From a virus (Duplodnaviria > Heunggongvirae > Uroviricota > Caudoviricetes): DNA of 46,604 nt. Shown here piece after piece: positions 1 through 44,965 of this stretch. The notes below the pieces were generated by a model. It worked only from the letters and a program-made list of their open reading frames with translations. It made no database searches and was not told where the DNA came from. Where the stretch lies: IMG/VR virus record IMGVR_UViG_2565956727_000002. One strand, given 5' to 3'. The translations under genes were made by a program, and so were the position numbers. Numbering within the stretch: the first letter of the stretch is position 1; every line of letters starts with the position of its first letter.

Positions 1-1284
1 TTACAGACTTCTGGAAGGTTGCACAGCTCTTACAACACGCGGTTGATCTTCCGCAGCGTCTTCCAGCGCACTTAAATCACGGTCTTTCACTTCTGGCATT
101 TTCAGCGCAGAGATTAAACCAATCACTGAATATGCCATGATCATAATGGCGATCGGATACCAGGATTCCGTCATGGTGCAGAAAATACCCGCCAGGATAG
201 GACCAAAACCGGAAGCGATAAGACCACCAATTTCTTTAGAAATGGCCATCCGGGTAAAGCGGTTTTTACAGCCGAACATTTCTGCCATGGTAATGTTTTC
301 CAGAGCAAATAATCCCAGCACCGCACAGTTATGAATCACAATCAGTGCAACCATAATGGTGCTCGGGGCATAGCTTTTATCTACAATGATAGAAAGCATT
401 GGCCATGCCAGCACAATCGCGGAGGTATTCATAATAATATACGGGATCCGGCGACCAATTTTATCGGATAACCAACCAAGGAACGGAATGGTCATAAAGC
501 CGAGAATCGAACTAATCATCAATGCATCTGTTGGAATTGCTTTGTTAAACAATAACGTCTGCACTAAATAGCCTGCAAGGAAAGTCTGAATTAACCCGGA
601 GTTACCCGCCTGACCAAAACGCAGCCCTGTTGCCAGCCAGAAGGATTTGCTCTGGAACATGCTACCAGCAGGTGCAGGTTTTGCTGTGGGTTGGTTGCTG
701 TCATTAACCTTCTCAAAGACCGGGCTTTCTTTCAGATTCATACGTAACCAGATAGCAAAGACCATCACGACAACGCTCGCCAGGAACGGTATACGCCATC
801 CCCACGCCAGCAGTTCCTCTTTACTGAGAATGAAGAACATAAAGGCCCAGATTGCCGTTGCGCTCAAGGTTCCGCAGTTAGTTCCCATAGCTACAAATGA
901 GGAGATAATTCCGCGCTTACCTTTTGGTGCATATTCCGCCAGCATCGTACCGGCACCGGAAATTTCCGCACCTGCACCCAACCCCTGAATAATACGCAGC
1001 GTCACCAGCAAGATGGGGGCAAAAACACCAATCTGTGCATAGGTCGGTAACACACCAATTAAGGTGGTACAGATCCCCATCATGGTGATGGTAATAAAGA
1101 GCACTTTTTTACGCCCTATTCTGTCGCCCATTTTGCCGAAAATAAATGCTCCGACAATACGCGCCACATAACCTGCACCGTAGGTTCCCATTGCCAAAAT
1201 TAACGCCATTGCCGTTGATGATTCAGGAAAAAATATTTCATGAAACACTAACGCTGCGCCGAGCGAATATAACTGGAAATCCAT
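1..1284 (-). CDS. ydfJ: MFS family inner-membrane transporter (YdfJ-like); N-terminus appears short for an MFS protein, consistent with truncation by prophage insertion
   Basis: 427-aa ORF with multiple hydrophobic helices and the MFS loop motif G-x-x-GDRIGRKK near the N-terminus; recognised as YdfJ from memory of E. coli. Confidence 0.85.
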   Translation of the reverse strand: MDFQLYSLGAALVFHEIFFPESSTAMALILAMGTYGAGYVARIVGAFIFGKMGDRIGRKKVLFITITMMGICTTLIGVLPTYAQIGVFAPILLVTLRIIQGLGAGAEISGAGTMLAEYAPKGKRGIISSFVAMGTNCGTLSATAIWAFMFFILSKEELLAWGWRIPFLASVVVMVFAIWLRMNLKESPVFEKVNDSNQPTAKPAPAGSMFQSKSFWLATGLRFGQAGNSGLIQTFLAGYLVQTLLFNKAIPTDALMISSILGFMTIPFLGWLSDKIGRRIPYIIMNTSAIVLAWPMLSIIVDKSYAPSTIMVALIVIHNCAVLGLFALENITMAEMFGCKNRFTRMAISKEIGGLIASGFGPILAGIFCTMTESWYPIAIMIMAYSVIGLISALKMPEVKDRDLSALEDAAEDQPRVVRAVQPSRSL

Positions 1285-23072: not shown

Positions 23073-23284
23073 CAGAACCTCGCCAGCCGGTACCCGGGAT
23101 GCCCCCGTCGTCGTGTAATCAGAGCCGCAAGGCGGCGCTCCCACTCCTGCCGTCCCTGCCGGATCTCAGATAAGTTTTCCATGGTCATCTGCTGACCATT
23201 AAAGGTGACGGATTTTCCGTCCAGCACCGCCATTTCAGCTTCCGTATAACGCTGAATCATGGCTTCGATATCATTCTGGTTCAT
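23072..23284 (-). CDS. W: head-tail joining / head completion protein (W-like)
   Basis: About 70 aa between TerL and portal; C-terminus ...RRRGHPGYRLARF resembles lambda W; ATG overlaps the TerL stop. Confidence 0.7.
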   Translation of the reverse strand: MNQNDIEAMIQRYTEAEMAVLDGKSVTFNGQQMTMENLSEIRQGRQEWERRLAALITRRRGHPGYRLARF

Positions 23285-25380
23285 AACCATCCTCCGGAAG
23301 TCAGCCAGGGGTTAACATCGTCAGTTACTGTTTTCTTCCGTTTTTGTTTTTTAACAGGCGTGGATACCGGTTCCGGTGAGGATGACGGTTCGGTACTGTC
23401 CTGGACACACTCCAGCCAGGTCTCCCGGCTCGCCCACTCCGGTGCATCCGGCCAGCGGATCTTTTCGTATCCATGCAGAATGACCAGAGCCTCGGCATAC
23501 ACCATCAGGTCAAAAGCTTCGTTGGCACCGCGACCCGGCTTACTCCATTTCCCGTCACTGCTCCGCTCTTCATACGTCAGTTCGTCGTAAAACCAGCTCC
23601 CCAGCCAGTCAGGGAAATGCACATAGCCTGGACCTGGCGAGTCACGCCATAACGCGTTATTCACCCGGTCTTTCAGGGCATCCGTCTGAAGAAGCCAGAG
23701 CGGCACATCACCTGCGGCCTGCGCCCGGCGGCCCGTTCGTCCGGTGTTATCAGGGAATGTACGGCTGATCAGTTTTGCGCGCCGGATGCTGTCACCCTTA
23801 AACAGGTAAATACGTTTACCAAGGCCATCACGACGGCAACGACGCCAGAATTTATAGGCATTATCAGTGACCCCGTCTTCACCGCCGGAGTCCACCGCCA
23901 TAGCCATCAGTCGCATTTGTTGAGAAGGATCGGAGGCCAGCGGCCAGCTTTTATGAAAAACATCCGTCAGCAGGACATCCCAGTCTTCCGGATAGCTGGC
24001 CGGATCAATTCGCTGGCTCTCCCCGTCGCAGTCACTGCGCAATGACTGCGTGATGTTGTAACGATCAATAATCCAGCGTTCGCCACGACTGCCATAGCCC
24101 GTTACCTGAACCACAAAACGGCGATGACGTCCCGCCTGCACATCCACTGTCGCCACAAGGAAATTAACGCCATCCGGCACACTGCGGGAAGGAACTAGCT
24201 CTGCCCGCTGCTCAAGCAGTTCACTTTTTCGTTGCTCCATGCTGGCACGAGGAAGATAAGGCAATCCCCAGTCGGTGTTGATAACCGCCCTGAGTGTTTC
24301 TTCGCTTCCTGTCGCTTCATACTCCTGTTCTGCAGTCAGTAATTTGTAAACCAGTTGCGCCCAGGTCTGATACGCAGCAGCTGGCCCTTCCATCCAGAAA
24401 CTGGCGATACGGGAGCGGCGCGGTTCACCGGAAACGTTGCCGTTACGATCAATGACCTGACCTTCACGCAACCAGACTCCTGCACTATTGAGCTCACGCT
24501 TTTTCTCCGCAGTGATAATGCCGCTGCAGTGCGGGCAAAGTAGATACGCCGCCTCACTGGCTTTAAAGGGATCCGGTTCATTACGGTAGCCGGTCATGGC
24601 ATCCATGGCTGGCTGAAAATATTCACCGCAGTGCGGACATGACCAGTACCAGCGGCGGCGGTCACCACGATTGTAAAGGGAAAGAATACCAGTCGTCGGT
24701 GGCGCTTCATGAGGCGACTTACGTCGCCATTTGCTGTCGCAGATGTCACGTCCCGGCGAGCTCTCCACCAGAGTCATCCCGGCGGACATAAATGTGGTGG
24801 TACGTTTTGAGGCCAGGGAGAAACCATCACCCTCGCTGTCGATATTCTCCGGAAAACGGTCGTAATCGGTTAAGGCGACAAACCGGTAATCCGACGACGA
24901 CATAATGTTGACCGAGGGCCAACCAATTTTAAGGAACGAGCCATCCCTGAACGTCTTATCATGGACATTATTGTCGTTACGACGTGGACTCATTCTTTTC
25001 TTTACCGCCGCACTGCTTCTGAACGTTCTGTCGAGGCGCTTTTTAGAATGCTCGCGGGCCTTATCTTCGGTCATCTGCACAACGAGCATGTCCGAAGGAT
25101 CGCAAACGATGGTATAGACAATCCATCCATCGATCAGACCAATGGTCTTCCCTGTTCGCGCAGGACCAACAAAAATCACCGCATCGTATTCACGCGATGC
25201 CAGGCAGTTCATGGGCTCAATGATGTAGGGTGTCAGTTCAGGATCCCATGGCACCGAGTTACCAGCCCCCTTGGGAACACGCATGAATTTTTTAACAGCC
25301 TCCGAAATCGGCATGCGACGTGGTGGGGAAAATCCTGCCGATATGTCCCTTCCCAAATTTCGGGCTGATGAAAAACCCAT
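23281..25380 (-). CDS. A: terminase large subunit (lambda A-like)
   Basis: 699 aa; ATPase region (…VGPARTGKT…) and CPHCGE zinc-ribbon-like motif as in lambda gpA. Confidence 0.95.
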   Translation of the reverse strand: MGFSSARNLGRDISAGFSPPRRMPISEAVKKFMRVPKGAGNSVPWDPELTPYIIEPMNCLASREYDAVIFVGPARTGKTIGLIDGWIVYTIVCDPSDMLVVQMTEDKAREHSKKRLDRTFRSSAAVKKRMSPRRNDNNVHDKTFRDGSFLKIGWPSVNIMSSSDYRFVALTDYDRFPENIDSEGDGFSLASKRTTTFMSAGMTLVESSPGRDICDSKWRRKSPHEAPPTTGILSLYNRGDRRRWYWSCPHCGEYFQPAMDAMTGYRNEPDPFKASEAAYLLCPHCSGIITAEKKRELNSAGVWLREGQVIDRNGNVSGEPRRSRIASFWMEGPAAAYQTWAQLVYKLLTAEQEYEATGSEETLRAVINTDWGLPYLPRASMEQRKSELLEQRAELVPSRSVPDGVNFLVATVDVQAGRHRRFVVQVTGYGSRGERWIIDRYNITQSLRSDCDGESQRIDPASYPEDWDVLLTDVFHKSWPLASDPSQQMRLMAMAVDSGGEDGVTDNAYKFWRRCRRDGLGKRIYLFKGDSIRRAKLISRTFPDNTGRTGRRAQAAGDVPLWLLQTDALKDRVNNALWRDSPGPGYVHFPDWLGSWFYDELTYEERSSDGKWSKPGRGANEAFDLMVYAEALVILHGYEKIRWPDAPEWASRETWLECVQDSTEPSSSPEPVSTPVKKQKRKKTVTDDVNPWLTSGGWL

Positions 25381-28979: not shown

Positions 28980-30003
<1,024 letters not shown>

Positions 30004-30007
<4 letters not shown>

Positions 30008-35420: not shown

Positions 35421-35876
35421 CTCGCCAATATGAAATCAGTCAGAAAGGCGATCCATAAGAACAATAGCAAGACAATAAATCGCCATTACAGCCGTAATAG
35501 CCAGCGCACATTTGAGAACCAGCACCACAACCTCCTGTATTGGACGTACACCAGTCCTGATAAATATGAGGCTGTCTCGTCCGTGATTCAATACAACTAT
35601 TGGGTATGGTTTCTCTGATTTTTCTGTGGAAATGGAGCTCAACCACTAGTCACCACCAGCACTTCTTTTAATACGCAAAGTCCGACGCAAGCCAACAGGT
35701 TCAATTTCATATATATGAATTTTAAGCAGTATTCACCTACACGATTATTAGCAATTTCCTGAATATATGATGGAGTGTCTTGACGATTTTAGACCAGAAA
35801 CGCCCTCCACGTATTTCTGAGCGTACGCAACATATGTTATGGCAAATGCGAGCATATGGTAGAGTCAAATAAGTAA

Positions 35877-35898
35877 GAGCCACCCGCAGGTGGCTCTT
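35877..35898 (-). terminator. putative terminator just downstream of the AIPR-like gene
   Basis: hairpin agagccacc-cgca-ggtggctct 5 nt after the stop codon, followed by T-rich sequence. Confidence 0.45.
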
Positions 35899-35902
35899 AC
35901 TT

Positions 35903-37678
35903 TTACTCTTGCAATTCGATGATCTGCTCTTTACCTAGTAGATGATTAATAATATTTAATACTTTTTCTCTGTTCTGGAAGAATCTTGCTATATAACTAT
36001 TGGGGAAGACTTCCTGTATGTGATTATAAGTATCAGAAGCCAGCTCTATACATTCCTCCAGTGAAACGTTTCGGCTATAAGAGAAGATGTGATTCTCCAC
36101 AGAGGAAACTTCTATTTTATTCATGAGTATGGATATTAAAACATAATTTCCATGAATCATTATTTGATGAATCTGCTTCTGATTTTCCATATCTACTGAT
36201 AGTAGTTTAACTATACTTTCTTGCAATATATCATTTGCTAATCTATAAGCATTTACTTTATTTATTATATCCAAACCGGTAGGACCATTTTCAGCTGGGA
36301 ATACTTTTTCATAAAGACCTCCCCAGCTTTCAAAAAAACGTCCTCTATTTAGTTTTAAGGAAGATATCAATGTTTCATCTTTAGAGGCACACACTAATGC
36401 GTTTAAAGCATCATCAATATCAATGGTATTACCACCTGTCTGGCTGGAGTCTTCTTGCCTGAGTAGTTTGTAGCTATATCCGCCAATAAAGTTTATTTCT
36501 CTTTGTATTCTTTGTTGCTCGGGCCTCTGTGATGAGAAATCTCTTCCAGTAACCCTGTTTTGTGTATTGTTGAATTTAGTGACAGAGGTTAAAAAATCTT
36601 CTTTTGCTGCACTGATAAATCTAATGCTCACCTTGATTAGATCTTTTTTTTCTTCGGGTAAAGAGTTGAACACTTCACCAATAGTGCTTACAGTTTGAGC
36701 TCCATTTATTATACTCAGACTTTTAAAACTAAATAGCCCGTACTTCCTGCTTGTACTTAAGTTGATCATGCTTTCTTCTACATCACTATATACAGCAGTT
36801 ATCCCATTGTTATAGTACCAAAAATTCTCCGGCTTTTCACTTAATGTTTTCTTTATCCCAGAGTTTATGGATGAATTACCGAGGACACTTCTTATATTTT
36901 TCTCGAACAGAGAGTACTTGTACTTTTCCCACCAGTCGTATAGGATCCTTGCGGATATTGTTCCGTATATTGCTTTATAAGGTTCTGCTATCTCTCCATA
37001 ACTTTCAAGGTGAACATTGCTAACATTTATAGATTTTGATCGATCATTAGAAAGACCATCCATTATCACTTGTATACCTGCCGGCTCGAATAGCACTGAA
37101 TACTCATCTCTATTCTCTATATCTTTAAATAATAGAGACCGATTCTGAACCTTTTCCCAAAACTCTATGTCTGATTTTACTTCCTCGCTTGGCTCATGAA
37201 CCCCTGTATATATAAATACACATATACATTTATATGTAAATCCTGAGATTGCTTCAATTATGGAGTCTTTGTTTCTTAAAAACCTTTCGTTAAATGTTGT
37301 AAAGTCGCTGGCTATTACTTTTGCGCATGCGTCTTTGAATCTTCCGAATTCTCTTGTGGTTATAGAACCGTCGCCATTTTTAATATATTTTGACTGAACT
37401 ATTACTATCTTTCTCGAATTTTTATTAACATAAACTGCATCTATCCCGCCATCATCTTTTCCATCGCAGACAGCATTAGCAGCTAACTCAGGGTCTGGTT
37501 CATCACCATACAAGCTGATTGCATGCGCAGCTACACAGCGTGTAATTAGAGTTTCTTTCCTATGCTCTCCTACGGAATTAATATCTTTCATATCAATAAA
37601 AGTTCCGTATATAGACTCTAATTGATTAGTTATGCGTACTAAACCTGCTGTTTGCGTGGCTTTGTCGTACTGGGACAT
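35903..37678 (-). CDS. putative abortive-infection / anti-phage defence protein, AIPR-like, with N-terminal PD-(D/E)xK-like nuclease motif
   Basis: 591 aa in a markedly AT-rich segment; N-terminal DGGIDAVYV...IVIVQSKY nuclease-like motif; central NGAQT motif characteristic of AIPR proteins; own terminator and about 290 bp upstream non-coding region. Confidence 0.6.
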   Translation of the reverse strand: MSQYDKATQTAGLVRITNQLESIYGTFIDMKDINSVGEHRKETLITRCVAAHAISLYGDEPDPELAANAVCDGKDDGGIDAVYVNKNSRKIVIVQSKYIKNGDGSITTREFGRFKDACAKVIASDFTTFNERFLRNKDSIIEAISGFTYKCICVFIYTGVHEPSEEVKSDIEFWEKVQNRSLLFKDIENRDEYSVLFEPAGIQVIMDGLSNDRSKSINVSNVHLESYGEIAEPYKAIYGTISARILYDWWEKYKYSLFEKNIRSVLGNSSINSGIKKTLSEKPENFWYYNNGITAVYSDVEESMINLSTSRKYGLFSFKSLSIINGAQTVSTIGEVFNSLPEEKKDLIKVSIRFISAAKEDFLTSVTKFNNTQNRVTGRDFSSQRPEQQRIQREINFIGGYSYKLLRQEDSSQTGGNTIDIDDALNALVCASKDETLISSLKLNRGRFFESWGGLYEKVFPAENGPTGLDIINKVNAYRLANDILQESIVKLLSVDMENQKQIHQIMIHGNYVLISILMNKIEVSSVENHIFSYSRNVSLEECIELASDTYNHIQEVFPNSYIARFFQNREKVLNIINHLLGKEQIIELQE

Positions 37679-37969
37679 CCTTTGCGCTCCTGAACATGTA
37701 ACAAAATATGATTCGCATTATAAGATTTTTTTAATGTTTAGCCGAAGAGTTTTTTGCATGAGTTATGACATAAGTTTAGTTCGTAGTTCTGCGATATAGT
37801 TTTCTCCTGAAAACAAAAAACATCTGGGGCATGAGGTGAGCTCCGAAAGTTGGACATCTCAACGATTATGTCAAGAGCGTCTACTGGGACGTGGTCTGTG
37901 TAAACGGTCACTCCTAGTACAAAGCAGACAACAATGCCAGTTTTAATCTAATCCTATACAACAGAAATG

Positions 37970-38425
37970 TCATTTCACATTTGAACTAATGCACTTTAAT
38001 ATCGTTACTTCAAAATGCTGAACATTTCCCTGATAAAACGCCAGTATGCGTTGCATCACTTCGCTCTTCCGGCACTCGCGACAGATTATGTTTAGACGAC
38101 TGTCGTAGCGACGTATTTCTCCGTCAGGTAATGACCAGATAAGGTCCGGATCAACCACAGCAGGTTTCTTCACCTTTGCCCTCGAGAGTTTTTTGCGGGC
38201 GTTTTGCCAGTCCTTACGCGCCTGTTCAGACGGGAATAACCCGTAACCAGAGCTGTATACATCGCCACTGGCAACCAGCTCTCTGGCCAGAACGCTCATC
38301 AGATATCTTGTTGCCCCAGTTTTAGTTTCCAGTTGTCGTAACGTCTCGCGCCCACTCTGGCGTACGAGTTCCACCACCTGCCCTTTAATTTTTTCCCGCT
38401 CTTCTTGTGTAAAAACTTTTGCCAC
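37970..38425 (-). CDS. hypothetical protein (151 aa)
   Basis: ORF between the replication initiator and the AIPR-like gene; basic, CxxC pair (CRECRK); function unknown. Confidence 0.45.
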   Translation of the reverse strand: MAKVFTQEEREKIKGQVVELVRQSGRETLRQLETKTGATRYLMSVLARELVASGDVYSSGYGLFPSEQARKDWQNARKKLSRAKVKKPAVVDPDLIWSLPDGEIRRYDSRLNIICRECRKSEVMQRILAFYQGNVQHFEVTILKCISSNVK

Positions 38426-38465
38426 AAGTCCTCCTGAACATTACTTTATGCCCTAAAATCAACAC

Positions 38466-39485
38466 TTATCCCCTGAAACCAGGCGGAATTTCTGTATCCG
38501 GTTCAGAAATATGATTCACACAACGCTGTACAGGTGAACGTCCCAGGCGGATGACCAGTTCGTCCCATTTTTCGCGGAGTTTTGACGGGCTCATGATGTT
38601 TTTTACCCAGAATTGATCTCGCTGTACCCGACCAAACATTTCGCAAATTTGTCTGTGGCTTCTGCCATCCAGCATCCGCATTGTGCGCACGTCATTGGCC
38701 CAGGCTGTCCAGTTAGGCTCTTTTGGTCGCATGATCTCTCCATCGTCGCTGGCAGCCTGTTCGTAAAGGTTCACGATCCGCCCCCAAATCCACTGCGCAC
38801 ACGCCAAATCCTCCCTGCTACCCCACTGGCGTTTTTTCGCACTAAACACAACCGCGTCGGGGTTCCGGGTTAAAAAATCCTGTTCAGCGGTCTGCGGGTC
38901 CGGTTGCGAAGCTTCCGGACGAAAAGTGTTTTTATTCTCTGTAGTAATCTCTGTTGTATTCTCTGTAAGATCATCAGGCCATTTTGACCCGATGACATTG
39001 GGTCGTTTTGAACCAATGGAGCGTTTCGTTTTGACCTCTTCCATCGTGTCATTTTGACCTGATGGAGCGGCGCATTTTAAACCGATGGATTCGCTCAATT
39101 TGCCACCATCTAAAAGCTCGCTCCCGTAGTTGATCGTGTAGAAATTGGTCATATCGCGCTTTGATTTATTGAGCTTTTCACAACGCAAAAGCCCCAGCGT
39201 TTTCAGACTTGCAAACGCGCGCTTTAACGTTGACTCTGACCAGAATGGGAACTGTTCCAGCCATTGTTCCGTTGTGTTGTAAATCCAGCGAACACCATCA
39301 CATTCCATGCCGGAATTGGTATCTCTCAACCAGTAATGCAACTGCTGCAACACAATGGCTTCATTTAAGCCAATCTTCATCGCAAGCTGTGTGTTTATAA
39401 CCAGTGGGCGTTCAGCAAAAAGAAGGCTCATAATTCCATCCAGCTTTTTGTTGGTATTGCTGTCGATACGCAAGTTTGAAAGCAA
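38466..39485 (-). CDS. putative phage replication initiation protein (O-like / YdaU-like)
   Basis: 339 aa; N-terminal winged-helix-like region, acidic linker and conserved C-terminal domain; position downstream of the cro/cII-equivalent genes. Confidence 0.55.
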   Translation of the reverse strand: MLSNLRIDSNTNKKLDGIMSLLFAERPLVINTQLAMKIGLNEAIVLQQLHYWLRDTNSGMECDGVRWIYNTTEQWLEQFPFWSESTLKRAFASLKTLGLLRCEKLNKSKRDMTNFYTINYGSELLDGGKLSESIGLKCAAPSGQNDTMEEVKTKRSIGSKRPNVIGSKWPDDLTENTTEITTENKNTFRPEASQPDPQTAEQDFLTRNPDAVVFSAKKRQWGSREDLACAQWIWGRIVNLYEQAASDDGEIMRPKEPNWTAWANDVRTMRMLDGRSHRQICEMFGRVQRDQFWVKNIMSPSKLREKWDELVIRLGRSPVQRCVNHISEPDTEIPPGFRG

Positions 39486-39933
39486 TTGCTTTTTCTATAA
39501 GTTCGTCAGTTTCACGATCCACTACGGCAGGATCAGCAAAAAGCAGTCCGGACTCCACCACATCGCCATATTCTTTGTTTAACCCGGCGATCATGTACGT
39601 GATGCTTTTTCCGTCACTAATTTCACGATACAACCTGAAATCATTAATCCGAATAGCCTCCATAATTGCAGGCACTAGCGCCGTGAACTTTTCACGCTTA
39701 TCCCTGGTGTCGATAACCTTCCAGCGTTCGAATATCTTCACTCGATTAACGCCAAGTGCTCGCTGATCAACCGCGCCACCTTCATCTGTGACACGCTGAA
39801 CATCGATGTTCGGGCGCTCTTTCAAAGCCCAGAATGCTTCAGTGATTAATATCGTCGCCTGCTCCTGTGTCATTCCTGGTCGACATATCCAGGCATCCAG
39901 AGCCTCACGAGCCTGTTCAGGAGTGATTTTCAT
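39412..39933 (-). CDS. YdaT-like protein (cII-position regulator / putative toxin family)
   Basis: 173 aa immediately after the cro-like dicC gene; architecture and the ...FERWKVIDTRDKREKFTALVPAIMEAI... segment recall Rac YdaT. Confidence 0.55.
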   Translation of the reverse strand: MKITPEQAREALDAWICRPGMTQEQATILITEAFWALKERPNIDVQRVTDEGGAVDQRALGVNRVKIFERWKVIDTRDKREKFTALVPAIMEAIRINDFRLYREISDGKSITYMIAGLNKEYGDVVESGLLFADPAVVDRETDELIEKAIAFKLAYRQQYQQKAGWNYEPSFC

Positions 39934-40147
39934 TGTTCAACCGCCCCGCCCGCTTCGTCTTACGATATTCATCATAAACTTTGGGATCATACTGAAGCTC
40001 CCCGCCAGATGCCTCCTGTAGACGCATCGCGCGACCTTCGGGAACTAAATCCCCTTTCCAGCTATAAAGCGAAGCCAAACGAATACCTGCTGCTTGTGCA
40101 AGTTTTGTTTTTGAACCGAAATACAAAAGAGCGTCAGTTTTAAGCAT
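39917..40147 (-). CDS. dicC: Cro-like transcriptional regulator DicC
   Basis: 76 aa divergent from dicA; matches DicC as I recall it. Confidence 0.85.
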   Translation of the reverse strand: MLKTDALLYFGSKTKLAQAAGIRLASLYSWKGDLVPEGRAMRLQEASGGELQYDPKVYDEYRKTKRAGRLNNENHS

Positions 40148-40161
40148 TTAAAACACCTTTA

Positions 40162-42493: not shown

Positions 42494-44965
42494 ATGAGTA
42501 AAGTCTTTATTTGCGCCGCTATTCCTGACGAACTGGCAACAAGGGAAGAAGGCGCTGTGGCTGTAGCCACAGCCATTGAAGCTGGCGACGAACGCCGTGC
42601 TCGAGCAAAATTTCACTGGCAATTCCTGGAACATTATCCGGCTGCTCAGGACTGCGCTTATAAATTTATTGTCTGCGAGGATAAACCTGGCATACCCCGC
42701 CCTGCCCTCGATTCATGGGATGCTGAATATATGCAGGAAAACCGCTGGGATGAGGAGTCTGCTTCTTTTGTCCCGGTTGAGACTGAATCCGATCCGATGA
42801 ACGTCACTTTTGACAAGCTGGCCCCTGAAGTACAGAACGCTGTCATGGTTAAGTTCGACACATGTGAAAACATCACCGTTGATATGGTTATTAGCGCACA
42901 GGAATTGTTGCAGGAAGACATGGCAACATTCGACGGACATATCGTTGAAGCGTTGATGAAAATGCCAGAAGTTAACGCCATGTATCCGGAGCTTAAGTTG
43001 CACGCCATTGGGTGGGTTAAGCATAAATGTATTCCTGGTGCTAAATGGCCCGAAATTCAGGCAGAGATGCGCATCTGGAAAAAACGTCGCGAAGGTGAAC
43101 GCAAGGAAACCGGAAAATACACGTCTGTTGTTGATCTCGCCCGCGCCAGAGCCAATCAACAGTACACTGAAAATTCAACAGGAAAAATCAGCCCGGTCAT
43201 TGCTGCCATTCATCGCGAATACAAGCAGACATGGAAAACACTGGATGACGAACTGGCCTACGCTCTCTGGCCTGGTGATGTGGATGCCGGAAACATTGAC
43301 GGCAGCATCCATCGCTGGGCAAAAAAAGAAGTTATCGACAACGACCGCGAAGACTGGAAGCGTATCTCGGCATCAATGCGCAAACAGCCTGATGCCCTTC
43401 GCTACGACCGCCAAACTATTTTTGGCCTTGTCCGTGAGCGTCCGATCGACATTCACAAAGATCCCGTAGCACTGAACAAATATATCTGCGAATACCTGAC
43501 GACAAAGGGCGTGTTTGAGAATGAAGAAACAGACCTGGGCACTGTTGATGTTCTCCAGTCATCAGAAACACAAACTGATGCAGTGGAAACTGAGGTATCT
43601 GATATCCCAAAAAATGAAACCGCGCCGGAAGCTGAACCATCTGTAGAGCGTGAGGGGCCGTTCTATTTCCTCTTCGCAGATAAGGACGGAGAAAAATACG
43701 GTCGCGCAAACAAACTTTCTGGTCTGGATAAGGCACTGGCTGCTGGCGCCACTGAAATCACAAAAGAAGAATATTTTGCCCGAAAAAATGGCACATACAC
43801 GGGCTTACCGCAAAATGTAGATACCGCTGAAGATTCAGAACAACCAGAGCCGATAAAAGTTACCGCTGACGAAGTAAACAAAATTATGCAGGCAGCCAAT
43901 ATCAGCCAGCCTGACGCCGATAAGTTGCTTGCTGCATCACGTGGTGAATTTGTTGAAGGGATTAGTGACCCGAATGATCCGAAATGGGTTAAGGAGATCC
44001 AGACCCGCGATTCTGTGAACCAGAACCAGCATGAATCGGAACGGAACTACCAAAAAGCGGAACAAAACAGTCCAAATGCGTTACAAAACGAGCCAGAAAC
44101 GAAACAGCCTGAACCAGTGGCGCAACAGGAAGTGGAAAAAGTCTGCACCGCCTGCGGTCAGACCGGCGGCGGCAACTGCCCTGATTGTGGCGCGGTGATG
44201 GGCGACGCAACATACCAAGAAACATTCGATGAAGAGTATCAGGTTGAAGTTCAGGAAGATGATCCGGAGGAAATGGAAGGCGCTGAACATCCACACAAGG
44301 AGAACACTGGCGGCAATCAGCATCACAATAGCGATAATGAAACTGGCGAGACGGCAGATCACCCAATTAAGGTGAACGGTCATCACGAAATCACATCCAC
44401 CAGCAGGACGTGTGACCATCTAATGATCGACCTTGAAACCATGGGAAAAAATCCTGATGCCCCGATCATCTCAATAGGTGCAATATTTTTCGATCCGCAA
44501 ACCGGAGATATGGGACCGGAATTTAGTAAGACTATCGATCTGGAAACTGCTGGCGGAGTCATTGATCGGGACACCATTAAATGGTGGCTTAAGCAATCAC
44601 GCGAAGCGCAATCTGCCATTATGACCGATGAAATCCCGTTAGATGATGCACTGTTACAATTGCGGGAATTTATCGACGAAAACTCCGGTGAATTTTTTGT
44701 TCAGGTTTGGGGAAATGGAGCCAACTTCGACAACACGATTTTGCGCCGTTCATACGAACGGCAGGGGATCCCCTGCCCGTGGCGTTACTGCAACGATCGC
44801 GATGTACGCACAATCGTTGAGCTGGGGAAAGCCATAGACTTCGATGCCAGAACGGCTATTCCATTCGAAGGTGAGCGCCATAATGCACTTGATGACGCCC
44901 GTTACCAGGCAAAATACGTTTCAGTTATCTGGCAAAAACTGATCCCGAGTCAGGCTGATTCTTAA
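42494..44965 (+). CDS. large prophage exonuclease (YdfE-like) with C-terminal DEDDh 3'-5' exonuclease domain and central zinc ribbon
   Basis: 823 aa; acidic central region, CTACG...CPDCG zinc ribbon, C-terminal DnaQ-like motifs (…MIDLET…, …GNGANFD…, …HNALDDA…). Confidence 0.75.
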   Translation: MSKVFICAAIPDELATREEGAVAVATAIEAGDERRARAKFHWQFLEHYPAAQDCAYKFIVCEDKPGIPRPALDSWDAEYMQENRWDEESASFVPVETESDPMNVTFDKLAPEVQNAVMVKFDTCENITVDMVISAQELLQEDMATFDGHIVEALMKMPEVNAMYPELKLHAIGWVKHKCIPGAKWPEIQAEMRIWKKRREGERKETGKYTSVVDLARARANQQYTENSTGKISPVIAAIHREYKQTWKTLDDELAYALWPGDVDAGNIDGSIHRWAKKEVIDNDREDWKRISASMRKQPDALRYDRQTIFGLVRERPIDIHKDPVALNKYICEYLTTKGVFENEETDLGTVDVLQSSETQTDAVETEVSDIPKNETAPEAEPSVEREGPFYFLFADKDGEKYGRANKLSGLDKALAAGATEITKEEYFARKNGTYTGLPQNVDTAEDSEQPEPIKVTADEVNKIMQAANISQPDADKLLAASRGEFVEGISDPNDPKWVKEIQTRDSVNQNQHESERNYQKAEQNSPNALQNEPETKQPEPVAQQEVEKVCTACGQTGGGNCPDCGAVMGDATYQETFDEEYQVEVQEDDPEEMEGAEHPHKENTGGNQHHNSDNETGETADHPIKVNGHHEITSTSRTCDHLMIDLETMGKNPDAPIISIGAIFFDPQTGDMGPEFSKTIDLETAGGVIDRDTIKWWLKQSREAQSAIMTDEIPLDDALLQLREFIDENSGEFFVQVWGNGANFDNTILRRSYERQGIPCPWRYCNDRDVRTIVELGKAIDFDARTAIPFEGERHNALDDARYQAKYVSVIWQKLIPSQADS

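Follow-up and report, generated by a model that had tools for sequence, protein, structure and literature searches.

A loader-less lambdoid prophage replication module whose O-like initiator carries a DnaT-type tail, a candidate docking motif for the host DnaC-type loader

The module described here is best compared with the ori-O-P-ren region of phage lambda. In lambda, four iterons lie inside gene O, and the O protein's C-terminal domain contacts the helicase loader P. The ren gene follows P, and its product protects the phage from Rex exclusion; to our knowledge, Ren is not needed for lambda replication. The prophage module shares with this region the gene order (cro, a cII-like gene, O and then a ren homologue), the presence of iterons in the initiator gene beside an A+T-rich stretch, and homologous C-terminal domains in the two initiators. 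It differs in having no P gene, a DUF977 gene coming next after O, and in the N-terminal domain of the initiator, which is not a Phage_rep_O domain although it is predicted to form a winged helix.

An O homologue alone is encoded by phage LLS, for which E. coli K-12 is a host, and by 34 of 314 lambdoid phages; their replication “is not yet understood” (Zheng, Casjens et al. 2025, PMC12315714), and the searched passages of that report offer no mechanism and do not contain the word DnaT. The present prophage likewise has one O homologue and neither helicase nor loader, as judged from the PGAP annotation, a Walker A scan of the window (the whole 46,604-nucleotide stretch of DNA that was analysed) and the genome of phage HannyBb. 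The mEp460 relatives named in the context of the same report carry O proteins of the same family as this initiator. The locus is an ordinary and widespread prophage module, and the O-only class to which it belongs has already been described. The O protein of LLS also ends in the IPxGFRG motif (...DTKIPEGFRG) but differs in its N-terminal and central domains (HTH_36 and Phg_2220_C), and LLS has no DUF977 gene.

The last 21 residues of E. coli DnaT are nearly the same as the tail of this initiator. In E. coli dnaC lies directly after dnaT, and in many phage relatives a DnaC homologue likewise directly follows the tail-bearing gene. The initiator lacks both the N-terminal domain and the three-helix ssDNA-binding domain of DnaT but has a presumed origin-binding domain, by which it would be targeted to DNA with no need of PriA or PriB. 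A related combination is found in DopC, which contains an O-like N-terminal helix-turn-helix and a “DnaT C-terminal motif” (PDB code 2ru8), the match being to the extreme tail or to the helical domain (Brezellec et al. 2017, PMC5509034). DopC is a domesticated chromosomal gene paired with the lambda-P-like DopE, and no iterons were found there (PMC5509034). Rac-type modules have the same flanking genes (dicC, a ydaT-like gene and lygF/DUF977), but they encode a loader: in Rac-SA53 it is the P-like YdaV (PF06992), next to a YdaU with a DnaT domain and a TDW-type tail, while vB_EcoS-613R10 has a DnaC-like loader and an O protein with a GFRG tail.

The gene layout of the locus (Table 1) is as it had been given in the preliminary description: all genes lie on the minus strand, in the order dicC, YdaT-like, O-like, 151-aa gene and AIPR, and the replication module adjoins an A+T-rich AIPR cassette. 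Counted from an upstream TTG at 39485, the O-like open reading frame is 339 aa long (38466-39485, minus strand); the ATG at 39431 is the start of the O gene in PGAP and in three phage records and makes the gene overlap the YdaT-like gene by 20 nt. The 151-aa and AIPR genes are 291 bp apart. The G+C content is ~0.48-0.51 in the replication genes versus 0.34-0.38 in the AIPR stretch.

Table 1. Features of the replication module and the adjoining cassette, in window coordinates
Feature	Position	Strand	Basis
dicC, Cro-like repressor, 76 aa; first in the rightward-type early operon	39917-40147	-	Pfam P22_Cro 1.7e-11; PGAP name dicC
YdaT/cII-like gene, 173 aa	39412-39933	-	Pfam YdaT_toxin 2.1e-5; PHROG 163 “CII-like transcriptional activator” 7e-40
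O-like replication initiator, 321 aa from ATG 39431	38466-39431	-	PHROG 391 “replication initiation O-like” 5.8e-93; PGAP “phage replication protein O”
N-terminal winged-helix domain of initiator, residues ~14-100, presumed iteron-binding domain	39132-39392	-	AF2 pLDDT ~67-75; Foldseek
Five tandem 23-bp iterons, presumed origin, in disordered linker of initiator gene	38972-39087	.	Repeat search and sequence reading
A+T-rich stretch next to iterons, presumed unwinding region	38920-38968	.	Repeat search and sequence reading
C-terminal helical domain of initiator, residues ~183-295, homologous to lambda O C-terminal domain	38547-38885	-	BLASTP; AF2 pLDDT ~67-84
Disordered 21-residue C-terminal tail VQRCVNHISEPDTEIPPGFRG, matching extreme C-terminus of host DnaT	38469-38531	-	phmmer, NCBIfam
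DUF977 / LygF / Ren-like gene, 151 aa	37970-38425	-	PF06163 4.2e-29; PHROG 142 1.2e-45
Variable cargo cassette between Ren-like gene and hok/rem region	35697-37902	.	Homology breaks; G+C 0.34-0.38
AIPR-family, AbiU-like abortive-infection gene, 591 aa	35903-37678	-	Pfam AIPR 4.5e-33; PHROG 1841 6.9e-103; PADLOC AbiU 6.9e-24
Hairpin, 14-bp palindromic stem then T-rich run, directly after AIPR stop codon; probable cassette terminator	35871-35902	.	Terminator scan and sequence

The absence of a recognisable P-loop loader, noted earlier from the sequence, was confirmed. The Walker A pattern [AG]xxxxGK[STN] is found in none of the YdaT-like, O-like and 151-aa proteins; among open reading frames of at least 80 aa in the whole window it occurs only at 23281-25380, which is the terminase large subunit in the PGAP annotation, and at 28980-29477 and 29474-30007, annotated by PGAP as the lysis genes rzpQ and rrrQ. 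The PGAP annotation of the identical prophage of E. coli FREC5, fetched from the integrase to the tail-tube gene, contains no DnaB-, DnaC- or P-like gene, and the HannyBb genome, complete at 45 kb, has neither a helicase nor a loader gene. The loader absence is real and not an artefact of this prophage copy.

The preliminary description had offered loss of the loader upon insertion of the AIPR cassette as one explanation, and had proposed comparison with related prophages. Phages mEp460_ev081, HannyBb and PhiR42_1 lack the AIPR cassette and contain the same four genes, O and DUF977 being again separated by 40 bp. Of 5426 E. coli genomes, 1309 contain the loader-less set of dicC, YdaT-like, O and DUF977 genes and 38 contain the cassette, DUF977 being ~35 times more widespread. 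Homology to mEp460_ev081 ends at 35696 and resumes at 37903, that to HannyBb ends at 35594 and resumes at 38024, and in PhiR42_1 the right flank resumes at 38018. The cassette junctions (37903 to 38024) fall on the 3' end of the 151-aa gene, within it or downstream of it, and not between O and the 151-aa gene. Gain or loss of a loader block does occur among relatives: locus L282, whose O gene has 90% DNA identity to this one, carries DnaC-like and YdaW-like genes between O and DUF977. Loss of a DnaC- or P-like gene with this insertion is nevertheless refuted by the genome counts, the cassette-free phages and the junction positions.

A second proposal, that the 151-aa and AIPR genes act together as a two-gene defence system, would fit their common strand and short separation, and all five AIPR-cassette copies listed adjoin a DUF977 gene. 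The reading is highly improbable, since DUF977 is so much commoner than the cassette, no PADLOC model matched DUF977, and the AIPR domain (PF10592) matches the single-gene PADLOC AbiU model. The cassette also has its own low G+C content, a promoter-like site of its own and the terminator hairpin, and other cargo occupies the same slot, PD-T7-1 in mEp460_ev081 and a methyltransferase being the examples seen. The AIPR gene is, by its sequence, an AbiU-like single-gene cargo in a variable slot outside the replication module, and the slot after the Ren-like gene is marked as a site of defence-gene exchange.

The 151-aa protein is, by sequence, a homologue of lambda Ren. Its match to PF06163 (DUF977) covers the full profile (1-134 of 134), and lambda Ren falls in PHROG 142 too, at 1.6e-41. 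The protein is made of a predicted N-terminal winged helix, a conserved NIICRECRKSxxMQRxLAFY motif and a copy-specific C-terminus, hypervariable beyond AFYQGN. A Foldseek search with the AF2 model of DUF977 returned only generic winged-helix regulators, all with E > 0.02, and in the literature “LygF” was found as a Salmonella gene label only, with no function attached. The 151-aa protein contains no Walker A motif, no AAA+ fold and no Phage_lambda_P domain, DUF977 being the only domain found by Pfam.

As a non-canonical partner of the initiator, which the preliminary description had considered, the protein would replace the loader, for example as a helicase adaptor. In this initiator's family, loader-less modules always have the DUF977 gene ~40 bp after O, and the gene next to the initiator encodes a small winged-helix protein in several other loader-less modules, as might be expected of such a partner. 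The idea is very improbable because the protein belongs to the family of Ren, whose gene in lambda follows P, and has no P-loop or AAA+ fold, and because LLS and mEp460_4F5-type loader-less modules have no DUF977 gene. Moreover, the DUF977 gene is also found downstream of modules that encode a DnaC-like or P-like gene, so that its presence is independent of the presence of a loader. The preliminary description thus stood as a description of a loader-less module beside an AIPR cassette, and none of its three explanations survived. The homology and structure searches it had suggested identify the 339-aa reading frame as O-like and the 151-aa protein as a Ren-family winged helix with no loader domain, and the same gene set is found in relatives without the AIPR insertion. 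The module is very probably a complete, ordinary initiator-only lambdoid unit, unrelated to the insertion.

The initiator is similar to lambda O in its C-terminal part, with 34% identity over residues 147-294 (148 columns, BLASTP E 3e-28), and it matches both PHROG 391 and PHROG 277 (“O-like”). Its C-terminal domain is matched by 2911 representative proteins at E<=1e-3. Neither the full protein nor residues 1-110 gave a Pfam match, whereas lambda O matches Phage_rep_O (PF04492) at 5.7e-36. With the full-length model Foldseek found only generic winged-helix matches to the N-terminal domain, including the plasmid Rep-DNA complex 5kbj; it found none for the C-terminal domain, the quality of the AF2 model being moderate, with a mean pLDDT of 58.6. 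Built from 32 sequences with the tail left out, a profile of this C-terminal domain had no credible match in Pfam or among PDB sequences, the best being designed repeat proteins at E ~0.05, and it did not retrieve DnaT from the PDB sequences. The DnaT three-helix domain PF17948 has no match in the initiator, and the DnaT N-terminal domain is likewise absent. Only the tail of the initiator is DnaT-like.

The five iterons are spaced by 23-24 bp, three of them are internally palindromic, and their consensus on the coding strand is approximately CATCrGGTCAAAAyGrCCyGATG. The adjoining A+T-rich stretch is about one-third G+C and includes two TACAGAGAATA-type repeats 24 bp apart. The peptide TENTTEITTENK encoded by it is invariant among homologues that are only ~70% identical overall, which fits a constraint acting on the DNA. 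The layout is the same as in lambda, and the iterons probably constitute the origin.

The tail of the initiator differs from that of lambda O, which ends in ...NTDWIYGVDL, while the last ~25 residues of this protein are of DnaT type (...SEPDTEIPPGFRG). The three best phmmer matches of the tail among PDB sequences are all DnaT (2ru8, 6aep and 9zbt) and align end to end; 15 of 21 residues are identical to the C-terminus of E. coli DnaT, although the match taken alone is statistically marginal (E 0.016 versus PDB sequences). The NCBIfam DnaT model is matched only at positions 160-179 of 179, with 16 bits versus a cut-off of 201 bits. The IPxGFRG motif is retained in homologues whose 20 preceding residues differ completely. 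The pattern D..IP.GFRG with a stop after it was matched 120 times in viral contigs; 116 of these matches end open reading frames, mostly of initiator size (~260-400 aa). In bacterial genomes every true tail was found in Enterobacterales, either in DnaT beside DnaC or in prophage initiators.

The type of tail was compared with the gene that follows the initiator. A C-domain alignment search gave the best 80 loci, which were all of one subtype and unfit for covariation, and two unranked pattern-scan samples were used instead. The pooled set comprised 176 initiators, each 200 aa or longer, from 20 clusters of N-terminal domains, scored where at least 1 kb was available downstream (~140 modules); the sampled contigs are interrelated, and the counts that follow are of non-independent events. 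Initiators with the GFRG tail are followed by a DnaC homologue in 56 modules, by no loader in 44 and by a P homologue in none, while all 40 with a TDW or EAWEN tail have a P homologue next. The sample collected with a lambda-O C-domain motif, which is less biased, gave 23 DnaC, 14 none and no P for GFRG, and P for all 43 TDW and all 7 EAWEN tails. Tail and partner were never seen mismatched in the ~140 scored modules. Locus L338 had appeared as an exception, with a GFRG tail beside a P-like match, and was set aside when the match proved to be a 73-aa fragment and not a P gene. The codons of the tail lie directly beside the partner gene, and linkage alone could give some association.

Both types of tail occur within one N-terminal family, in which the partner switches along with the tail. 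Homology of L282 to this locus ends exactly at the stop codon of O, and a DnaC homologue, 50% identical to E. coli DnaC, starts 7 bp later. Loader-less initiators with the GFRG tail span nine N-terminal-domain clusters, and 72 of 74 further mEp460_4F5-type contigs without a loader keep the tail. Among the sampled initiators, a phage-encoded partner is absent only for the tail whose partner has a host equivalent. A few loader-less initiators end in a different tail, AW.GIWQQ..EQ, and the GFRG tail is accordingly not the sole route to doing without a loader.

These associations suggest that a DnaC-family loader docks on the DnaT-type tail. The N-terminal winged helix would attach the O-like protein to the five iterons in its own gene, as happens with lambda O, and in related phages the partner of the tail would be the DnaC homologue encoded directly after the initiator gene. 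In this phage the tail would engage the host DnaB-DnaC, and host DnaB would be loaded at the phage origin, so that, if the proposal is right, no loader is missing. For the whole explanation, an intact O-only module with a tail that engages the host DnaC-type loader, we estimate a probability of about 0.55; the recruitment step itself, in which the tail calls on a DnaC-type loader, here that of the host, is put at an even chance on the sequence comparisons. The reading implies that the tail would physically bind DnaC or DnaB-DnaC and that replication of the phage would depend on host DnaC.

What is reported for the corresponding part of DnaT points in another direction. The only reported effect of removing residues 154-179 of DnaT is weaker and less cooperative ssDNA binding (PMC4132743), and no paper was found that assigns a partner to these residues or that contains “PPGFRG”. 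In the preprimosome structure of 2026, DnaT is docked on PriA by its C-terminal domain and lies on PriB with its linker, and it is the N-terminal domain of DnaT, not the tail, that is suggested as a possible recruiter of DnaB/DnaC (PMC13377028). The tail could thus dock the initiator on PriA or PriB, or bind ssDNA, making the initiator an origin-tethered DnaT that feeds the host restart primosome; the DnaC-type neighbours would then reflect common descent of one gene block, co-inheritance being favoured by the adjacency of tail codons and partner gene. We regard this as unlikely. The initiator has the tail only and not the PF17948 domain. In Rac-SA53, YdaU does contain PF17948, yet it has a TDW-type tail and a P-like neighbour, which indicates that the partner goes with the tail rather than with the DnaT domain. 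As for common descent, mosaic junctions exactly at the O stop codon occur, yet tail and partner remain matched throughout the scored modules.

Loader-less lambdoid phages might instead rely mainly on recombination-dependent or other host-driven replication, the tail being a relic. The work on LLS ties its growth to RecBCD and Chi-dependent recombination, and recombination-dependent growth is named in its title (PMC12315714). This alternative is very improbable, as the iterons and the initiator are conserved and the tail is kept across the nine clusters of loader-less initiators despite the divergence of the residues before it, which argues for selection on the tail without any phage-encoded partner.

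Docking of the tail on a DnaC-type loader could be part of a more general rule, put forward here tentatively and with somewhat less than even odds, that the last ~7 residues of lambda-type initiators and of host DnaT are a portable address label that chooses the helicase loader. With the same reserve, IPxGFRG would direct the initiator to DnaC-family loaders, and NTDW or EAWEN-type tails to lambda-P-family loaders. Natural controls exist: the same initiator occurs both with a private DnaC and without one, and the same C-terminal domain occurs with the alternative tail beside P. One short, mutable motif is in this way a candidate answer to how O-only lambdoid phages replicate. If the address label is true, loader-less lambdoid phages would replicate by offering the DnaT label at their own origin to the host DnaB-DnaC. 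On DnaT the label would then supply the missing contact by which the PriA-PriB-DnaT preprimosome recruits DnaB-DnaC, and the dnaT-dnaC operon would be the rear half of such a phage module in domesticated form.

The genes of the replication module and the features around it are collected in the table. In PGAP and in three phage records, O starts at the ATG at 39431; the protein then has 321 aa, and its gene overlaps the YdaT-like gene by 20 nt. In some E. coli genomes these two genes are called as a single 448-aa protein (PF06254 plus O; proteins P0002-P0004), which may reflect a frameshift, a sequencing error or a true fusion. A motif scan found no Walker A motif in any of the three module proteins, and only three ORFs of the window contain one: the terminase large subunit and the lysis genes rzpQ and rrrQ (PGAP match). 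E. coli FREC5 carries a full-length prophage at its Qin site that is identical to the window. The annotation of this prophage, covered from the integrase up to the tail-tube gene, shows no DnaB-, DnaC- or P-like gene. The complete genome of the related phage HannyBb likewise has no helicase or loader gene. The ORF map, the Walker A scan and the FREC5 annotation thus confirm that a loader-less replication module adjoins the AIPR insertion, so the preliminary description was accurate in its observation, while its explanations proved wrong.

Features of the replication module and its surroundings (window positions unless residues or another locus are named)
Feature	Position	Strand	Remark
Exonuclease gene	42494-44965	+	leftward early operon
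dicC/Cro-like gene	39917-40147	-	
YdaT/cII-like gene	39412-39933	-	
O-like ORF	38466-39485	-	
Five 23-bp iterons	38972-39087		23-24 bp spacing, in linker-coding DNA
Initiator winged helix	residues ~14-100		AF2
Initiator disordered linker	residues 108-175		AF2
Initiator helical domain	residues ~183-295		AF2
Initiator disordered tail	C-terminal end		AF2
151-aa ORF (DUF977)	37970-38425	-	
AIPR gene	35903-37678	-	291 bp beyond the 151-aa ORF
Cargo slot	35595-38023		
Cargo slot, phage locus L001	2993-4936		
Cargo slot, phage locus L002	3789-5000		

One of these explanations was that a loader had been lost on insertion of the AIPR cassette, a stretch with a G+C content of ~0.35, compared with ~0.5 before it. 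Of 5426 complete E. coli genomes, however, 1309 have the 37700-40150 stretch (coverage of at least 80%) and only 38 the AIPR cassette. The related phages mEp460_ev081, HannyBb (from bird faeces) and PhiR42_1 have the same four genes, with O and the 151-aa gene likewise 40 bp apart, and lack AIPR. Homology of the window to these phages ends at 35594-35696 and 37903-38024, the right-hand break lying at, or within, the 3' end of the 151-aa gene, and as a result DUF977 proteins are alike over residues 1 to ~135 and then diverge completely. Four of them (P0122, P0125, P0136 and P0197) are near-identical up to ...AFYQGN and continue into unrelated C-termini of 4-45 residues; in one DUF977 protein this end is a Hok-domain fusion (PF01848). 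The downstream cassette has its recombination junction within the last codons of the DUF977 gene (37970-38030). Cargo is exchanged at the slot flanked by the Ren-like gene and the hok/mokW-rem region; the slot is occupied by an AbiU-like AIPR gene in the window (PADLOC 6.9e-24), by PD-T7-1 in mEp460_ev081 (PADLOC 4e-157), and by a methyltransferase fragment with a 228-aa ORF in HannyBb. The AIPR cassette has its own promoter-like site and a strong terminator hairpin. The breaks, the varying slot contents and the cassette's own signals indicate that no loader was lost by the insertion and that AIPR is independent cargo rather than a functional partner of the 151-aa gene. In E. coli E24377A (NC_009801.1, 1768543-1772255), which also has the AIPR cassette, an IS3-family element splits the 37700-40150 homologue into two pieces, and this copy of the module is probably inactivated.

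The 151-aa protein had also been considered as a non-canonical loader partner. It matches the whole PF06163 (DUF977) profile (4e-29) and PHROG 142 (1e-45), the same PHROG as lambda Ren (1.6e-41), with which it has in common the motif N[IL].x[KR]ECR[KQ]SxxM[KQ]R[IV]LAxY. Its AF2 model shows a confident N-terminal winged helix (pLDDT >90, residues ~10-70) and nothing like an AAA+ fold. In lambda, ren occupies the same position, right after the replication genes, and the position of DUF977 is unchanged in loader-less modules, in those with a DnaC-like loader (vB_EcoS-613R10, phage locus L282) and in one with a P-like loader (Rac-SA53). Judged from its sequence, this is a Ren-family gene; its family, the missing AAA+ fold and its presence whatever the loader rule it out as a loader. 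Many lambdoid modules, whether or not they encode a loader, have small winged-helix proteins after their replication genes. These come from several unrelated families, including PHROG 142 (Ren/DUF977), PHROG 630 (YdaW-like) and PHROG 1324 (PerC-like); examples are Rac-SA53 'ydaW' (L011, 3925-4686), L008 2159-2647 and the first downstream ORFs of loci L095 and L114.

The module is therefore intact and of a known, common kind, and we place the probability that it is complete and unrelated to the insertion at about 0.9. The locus belongs to the O-only lambdoid class, which is very common in E. coli. Zheng, Casjens and colleagues (2025, PMC12315714) report that LLS, and 34 of 314 lambdoid phages, have an O homologue alone, and describe the replication of these phages as 'not yet understood'. 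Unlike LLS, the window phage has a recombination function of its own, since it carries an 823-aa RecE-like exonuclease gene (PGAP 'exonuclease'), which is kept in mEp460_ev081, HannyBb and PhiR42_1.

The initiator matches PHROG 391 'O-like' (6e-93). Three of its five iterons are palindromic; the iterons are followed by A+T-rich DNA that contains two more repeats, the same layout as that of the lambda ori inside gene O. Residues 147-294 are 34% identical to lambda O 135-270 (E 3e-28), the alignment ending just short of the differing tails of the two proteins. At E<=1e-3 this widespread C-terminal domain matches 2911 representative proteins; it has no Pfam family or solved relative.

The last 21 residues of the initiator, VQRCVNHISEPDTEIPPGFRG, align end-to-end with the C-terminus of E. 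coli DnaT. The three best PDB-sequence matches of the tail are all DnaT, and the NCBIfam DnaT model is matched solely in its last 20 positions. The match is marginal on its own (E 0.016); it gains support from the retention, recurrence, ORF-end placement and Enterobacterales limits of the motif. IPxGFRG is kept in homologues in which the preceding 20 residues are unrelated, and it is also C-terminal in initiators with quite different N-terminal and central domains, such as the O proteins of vB_EcoS-640R1 (356 aa), vB_EcoS-613R10 (262 aa) and LLS. A scan of IMG/VR yielded 120 matches to D..IP.GFRG plus stop, 116 of them at the ends of ORFs that are mostly initiator-sized (~260-400 aa), and most fit the longer DnaT-like consensus [RK]D[VP]NxISxPDxxIPxGFRG. 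In species-representative bacterial genomes, ORF-end matches with this consensus are all in Enterobacterales, where they are either prophage initiators or DnaT proteins of 179-183 aa with DnaC next; matches from other phyla do not lie at ORF ends.

The tail type is associated with the neighbouring loader. In an unranked viral-contig sample drawn by a lambda-O C-terminal-domain motif, the tail and the next two ORFs were classified by BLASTP against E. coli DnaC, lambda P and P-like YdaV. GFRG tails were followed by a DnaC homologue in 23 cases, a P homologue in none and no loader in 14 (DUF977 first), while all 43 lambda-type TDW tails and all seven EAWEN tails had a P homologue. The two scans pooled gave 176 initiators (length at least 200 aa) from 20 clusters of N-terminal domains, scored where at least 1 kb lay downstream: GFRG tails had 56 DnaC homologues, no P homologue and 44 cases with no loader, compared with 0, 40 and 0 for TDW or EAWEN tails. 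Both tail types are present in one and the same N-terminal family, the partner changing along with the tail. Among 74 additional loader-less contigs of the mEp460_4F5 type, 72 keep ...YSQIP[AV]GFRG. The inspected neighbours in 'no loader' cases are Ren-like or other winged-helix proteins and, as named by eye from their sequences, methyltransferases, nucleases (RuvC-like or VRR-NUC-like), ParB-like proteins and antirepressors; there is no helicase or AAA+ protein among them. The sharpest case is L282, in which the O gene is 90% identical in DNA to that of the window over its full length; homology stops exactly at the O stop codon, and a DnaC homologue (50% identical to E. coli DnaC) starts 7 bases on. 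Conversely, Rac-SA53 YdaU has a true DnaT domain (PF17948), yet a TDW-type tail and a P-like neighbour, so the partner tracks the tail and not the DnaT domain.

Other arrangements were also observed. In Citrobacter sp. Cu233 (L338), a YdaW-like gene and a 73-aa ORF lie after an initiator with a GFRG tail; the similarity of this ORF to a P-like YdaV is limited to the C-terminal end of YdaV, and the ORF may be what is left of a loader gene that was replaced. Viral contigs L214, L259, L261 and L279 encode a second kind of loader-less lambda-O-domain initiator, with the tail ...AW.GIWQQ..EQ... and methyltransferase or antirepressor-like neighbours. In locus L227, the initiator combines the lambda-O C-terminal domain with a third tail (...LYLAAGGVDDGH), and its gene shares 19 nt with that of a 427-aa DnaB-like helicase. 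This P22-type initiator-helicase pair suggests a further tail/partner pairing.

A phage-encoded partner is missing only where the host encodes an equivalent of the tail type's partner, and the GFRG tail is also found on the host protein encoded directly upstream of dnaC. In the simplest reading of these sequences, IPxGFRG would be a docking motif for DnaC-family loaders, and loader-less modules such as that of the window would use host DnaB-DnaC. This agrees with dnaC being a domesticated phage gene (PMC5109545) and with the 'DnaT C-terminal motif' of the O-like protein DopC (PMC5509034). The odds that the tail recruits a DnaC-type loader appear about even. On the opposing side, a 2026 preprimosome paper favours the N-terminal domain of DnaT as the recruiter (PMC13377028), tail codons and partner gene are physically linked, the sampled contigs are mutually related and a few loader-less initiators end in AW.GIWQQ..EQ instead. 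The searchable literature contains no account of the tail-loader association or of a DnaT-type tail on these initiators, and the finding is valuable as a lead on the way in which DnaC is engaged by these modules and perhaps also by DnaT.
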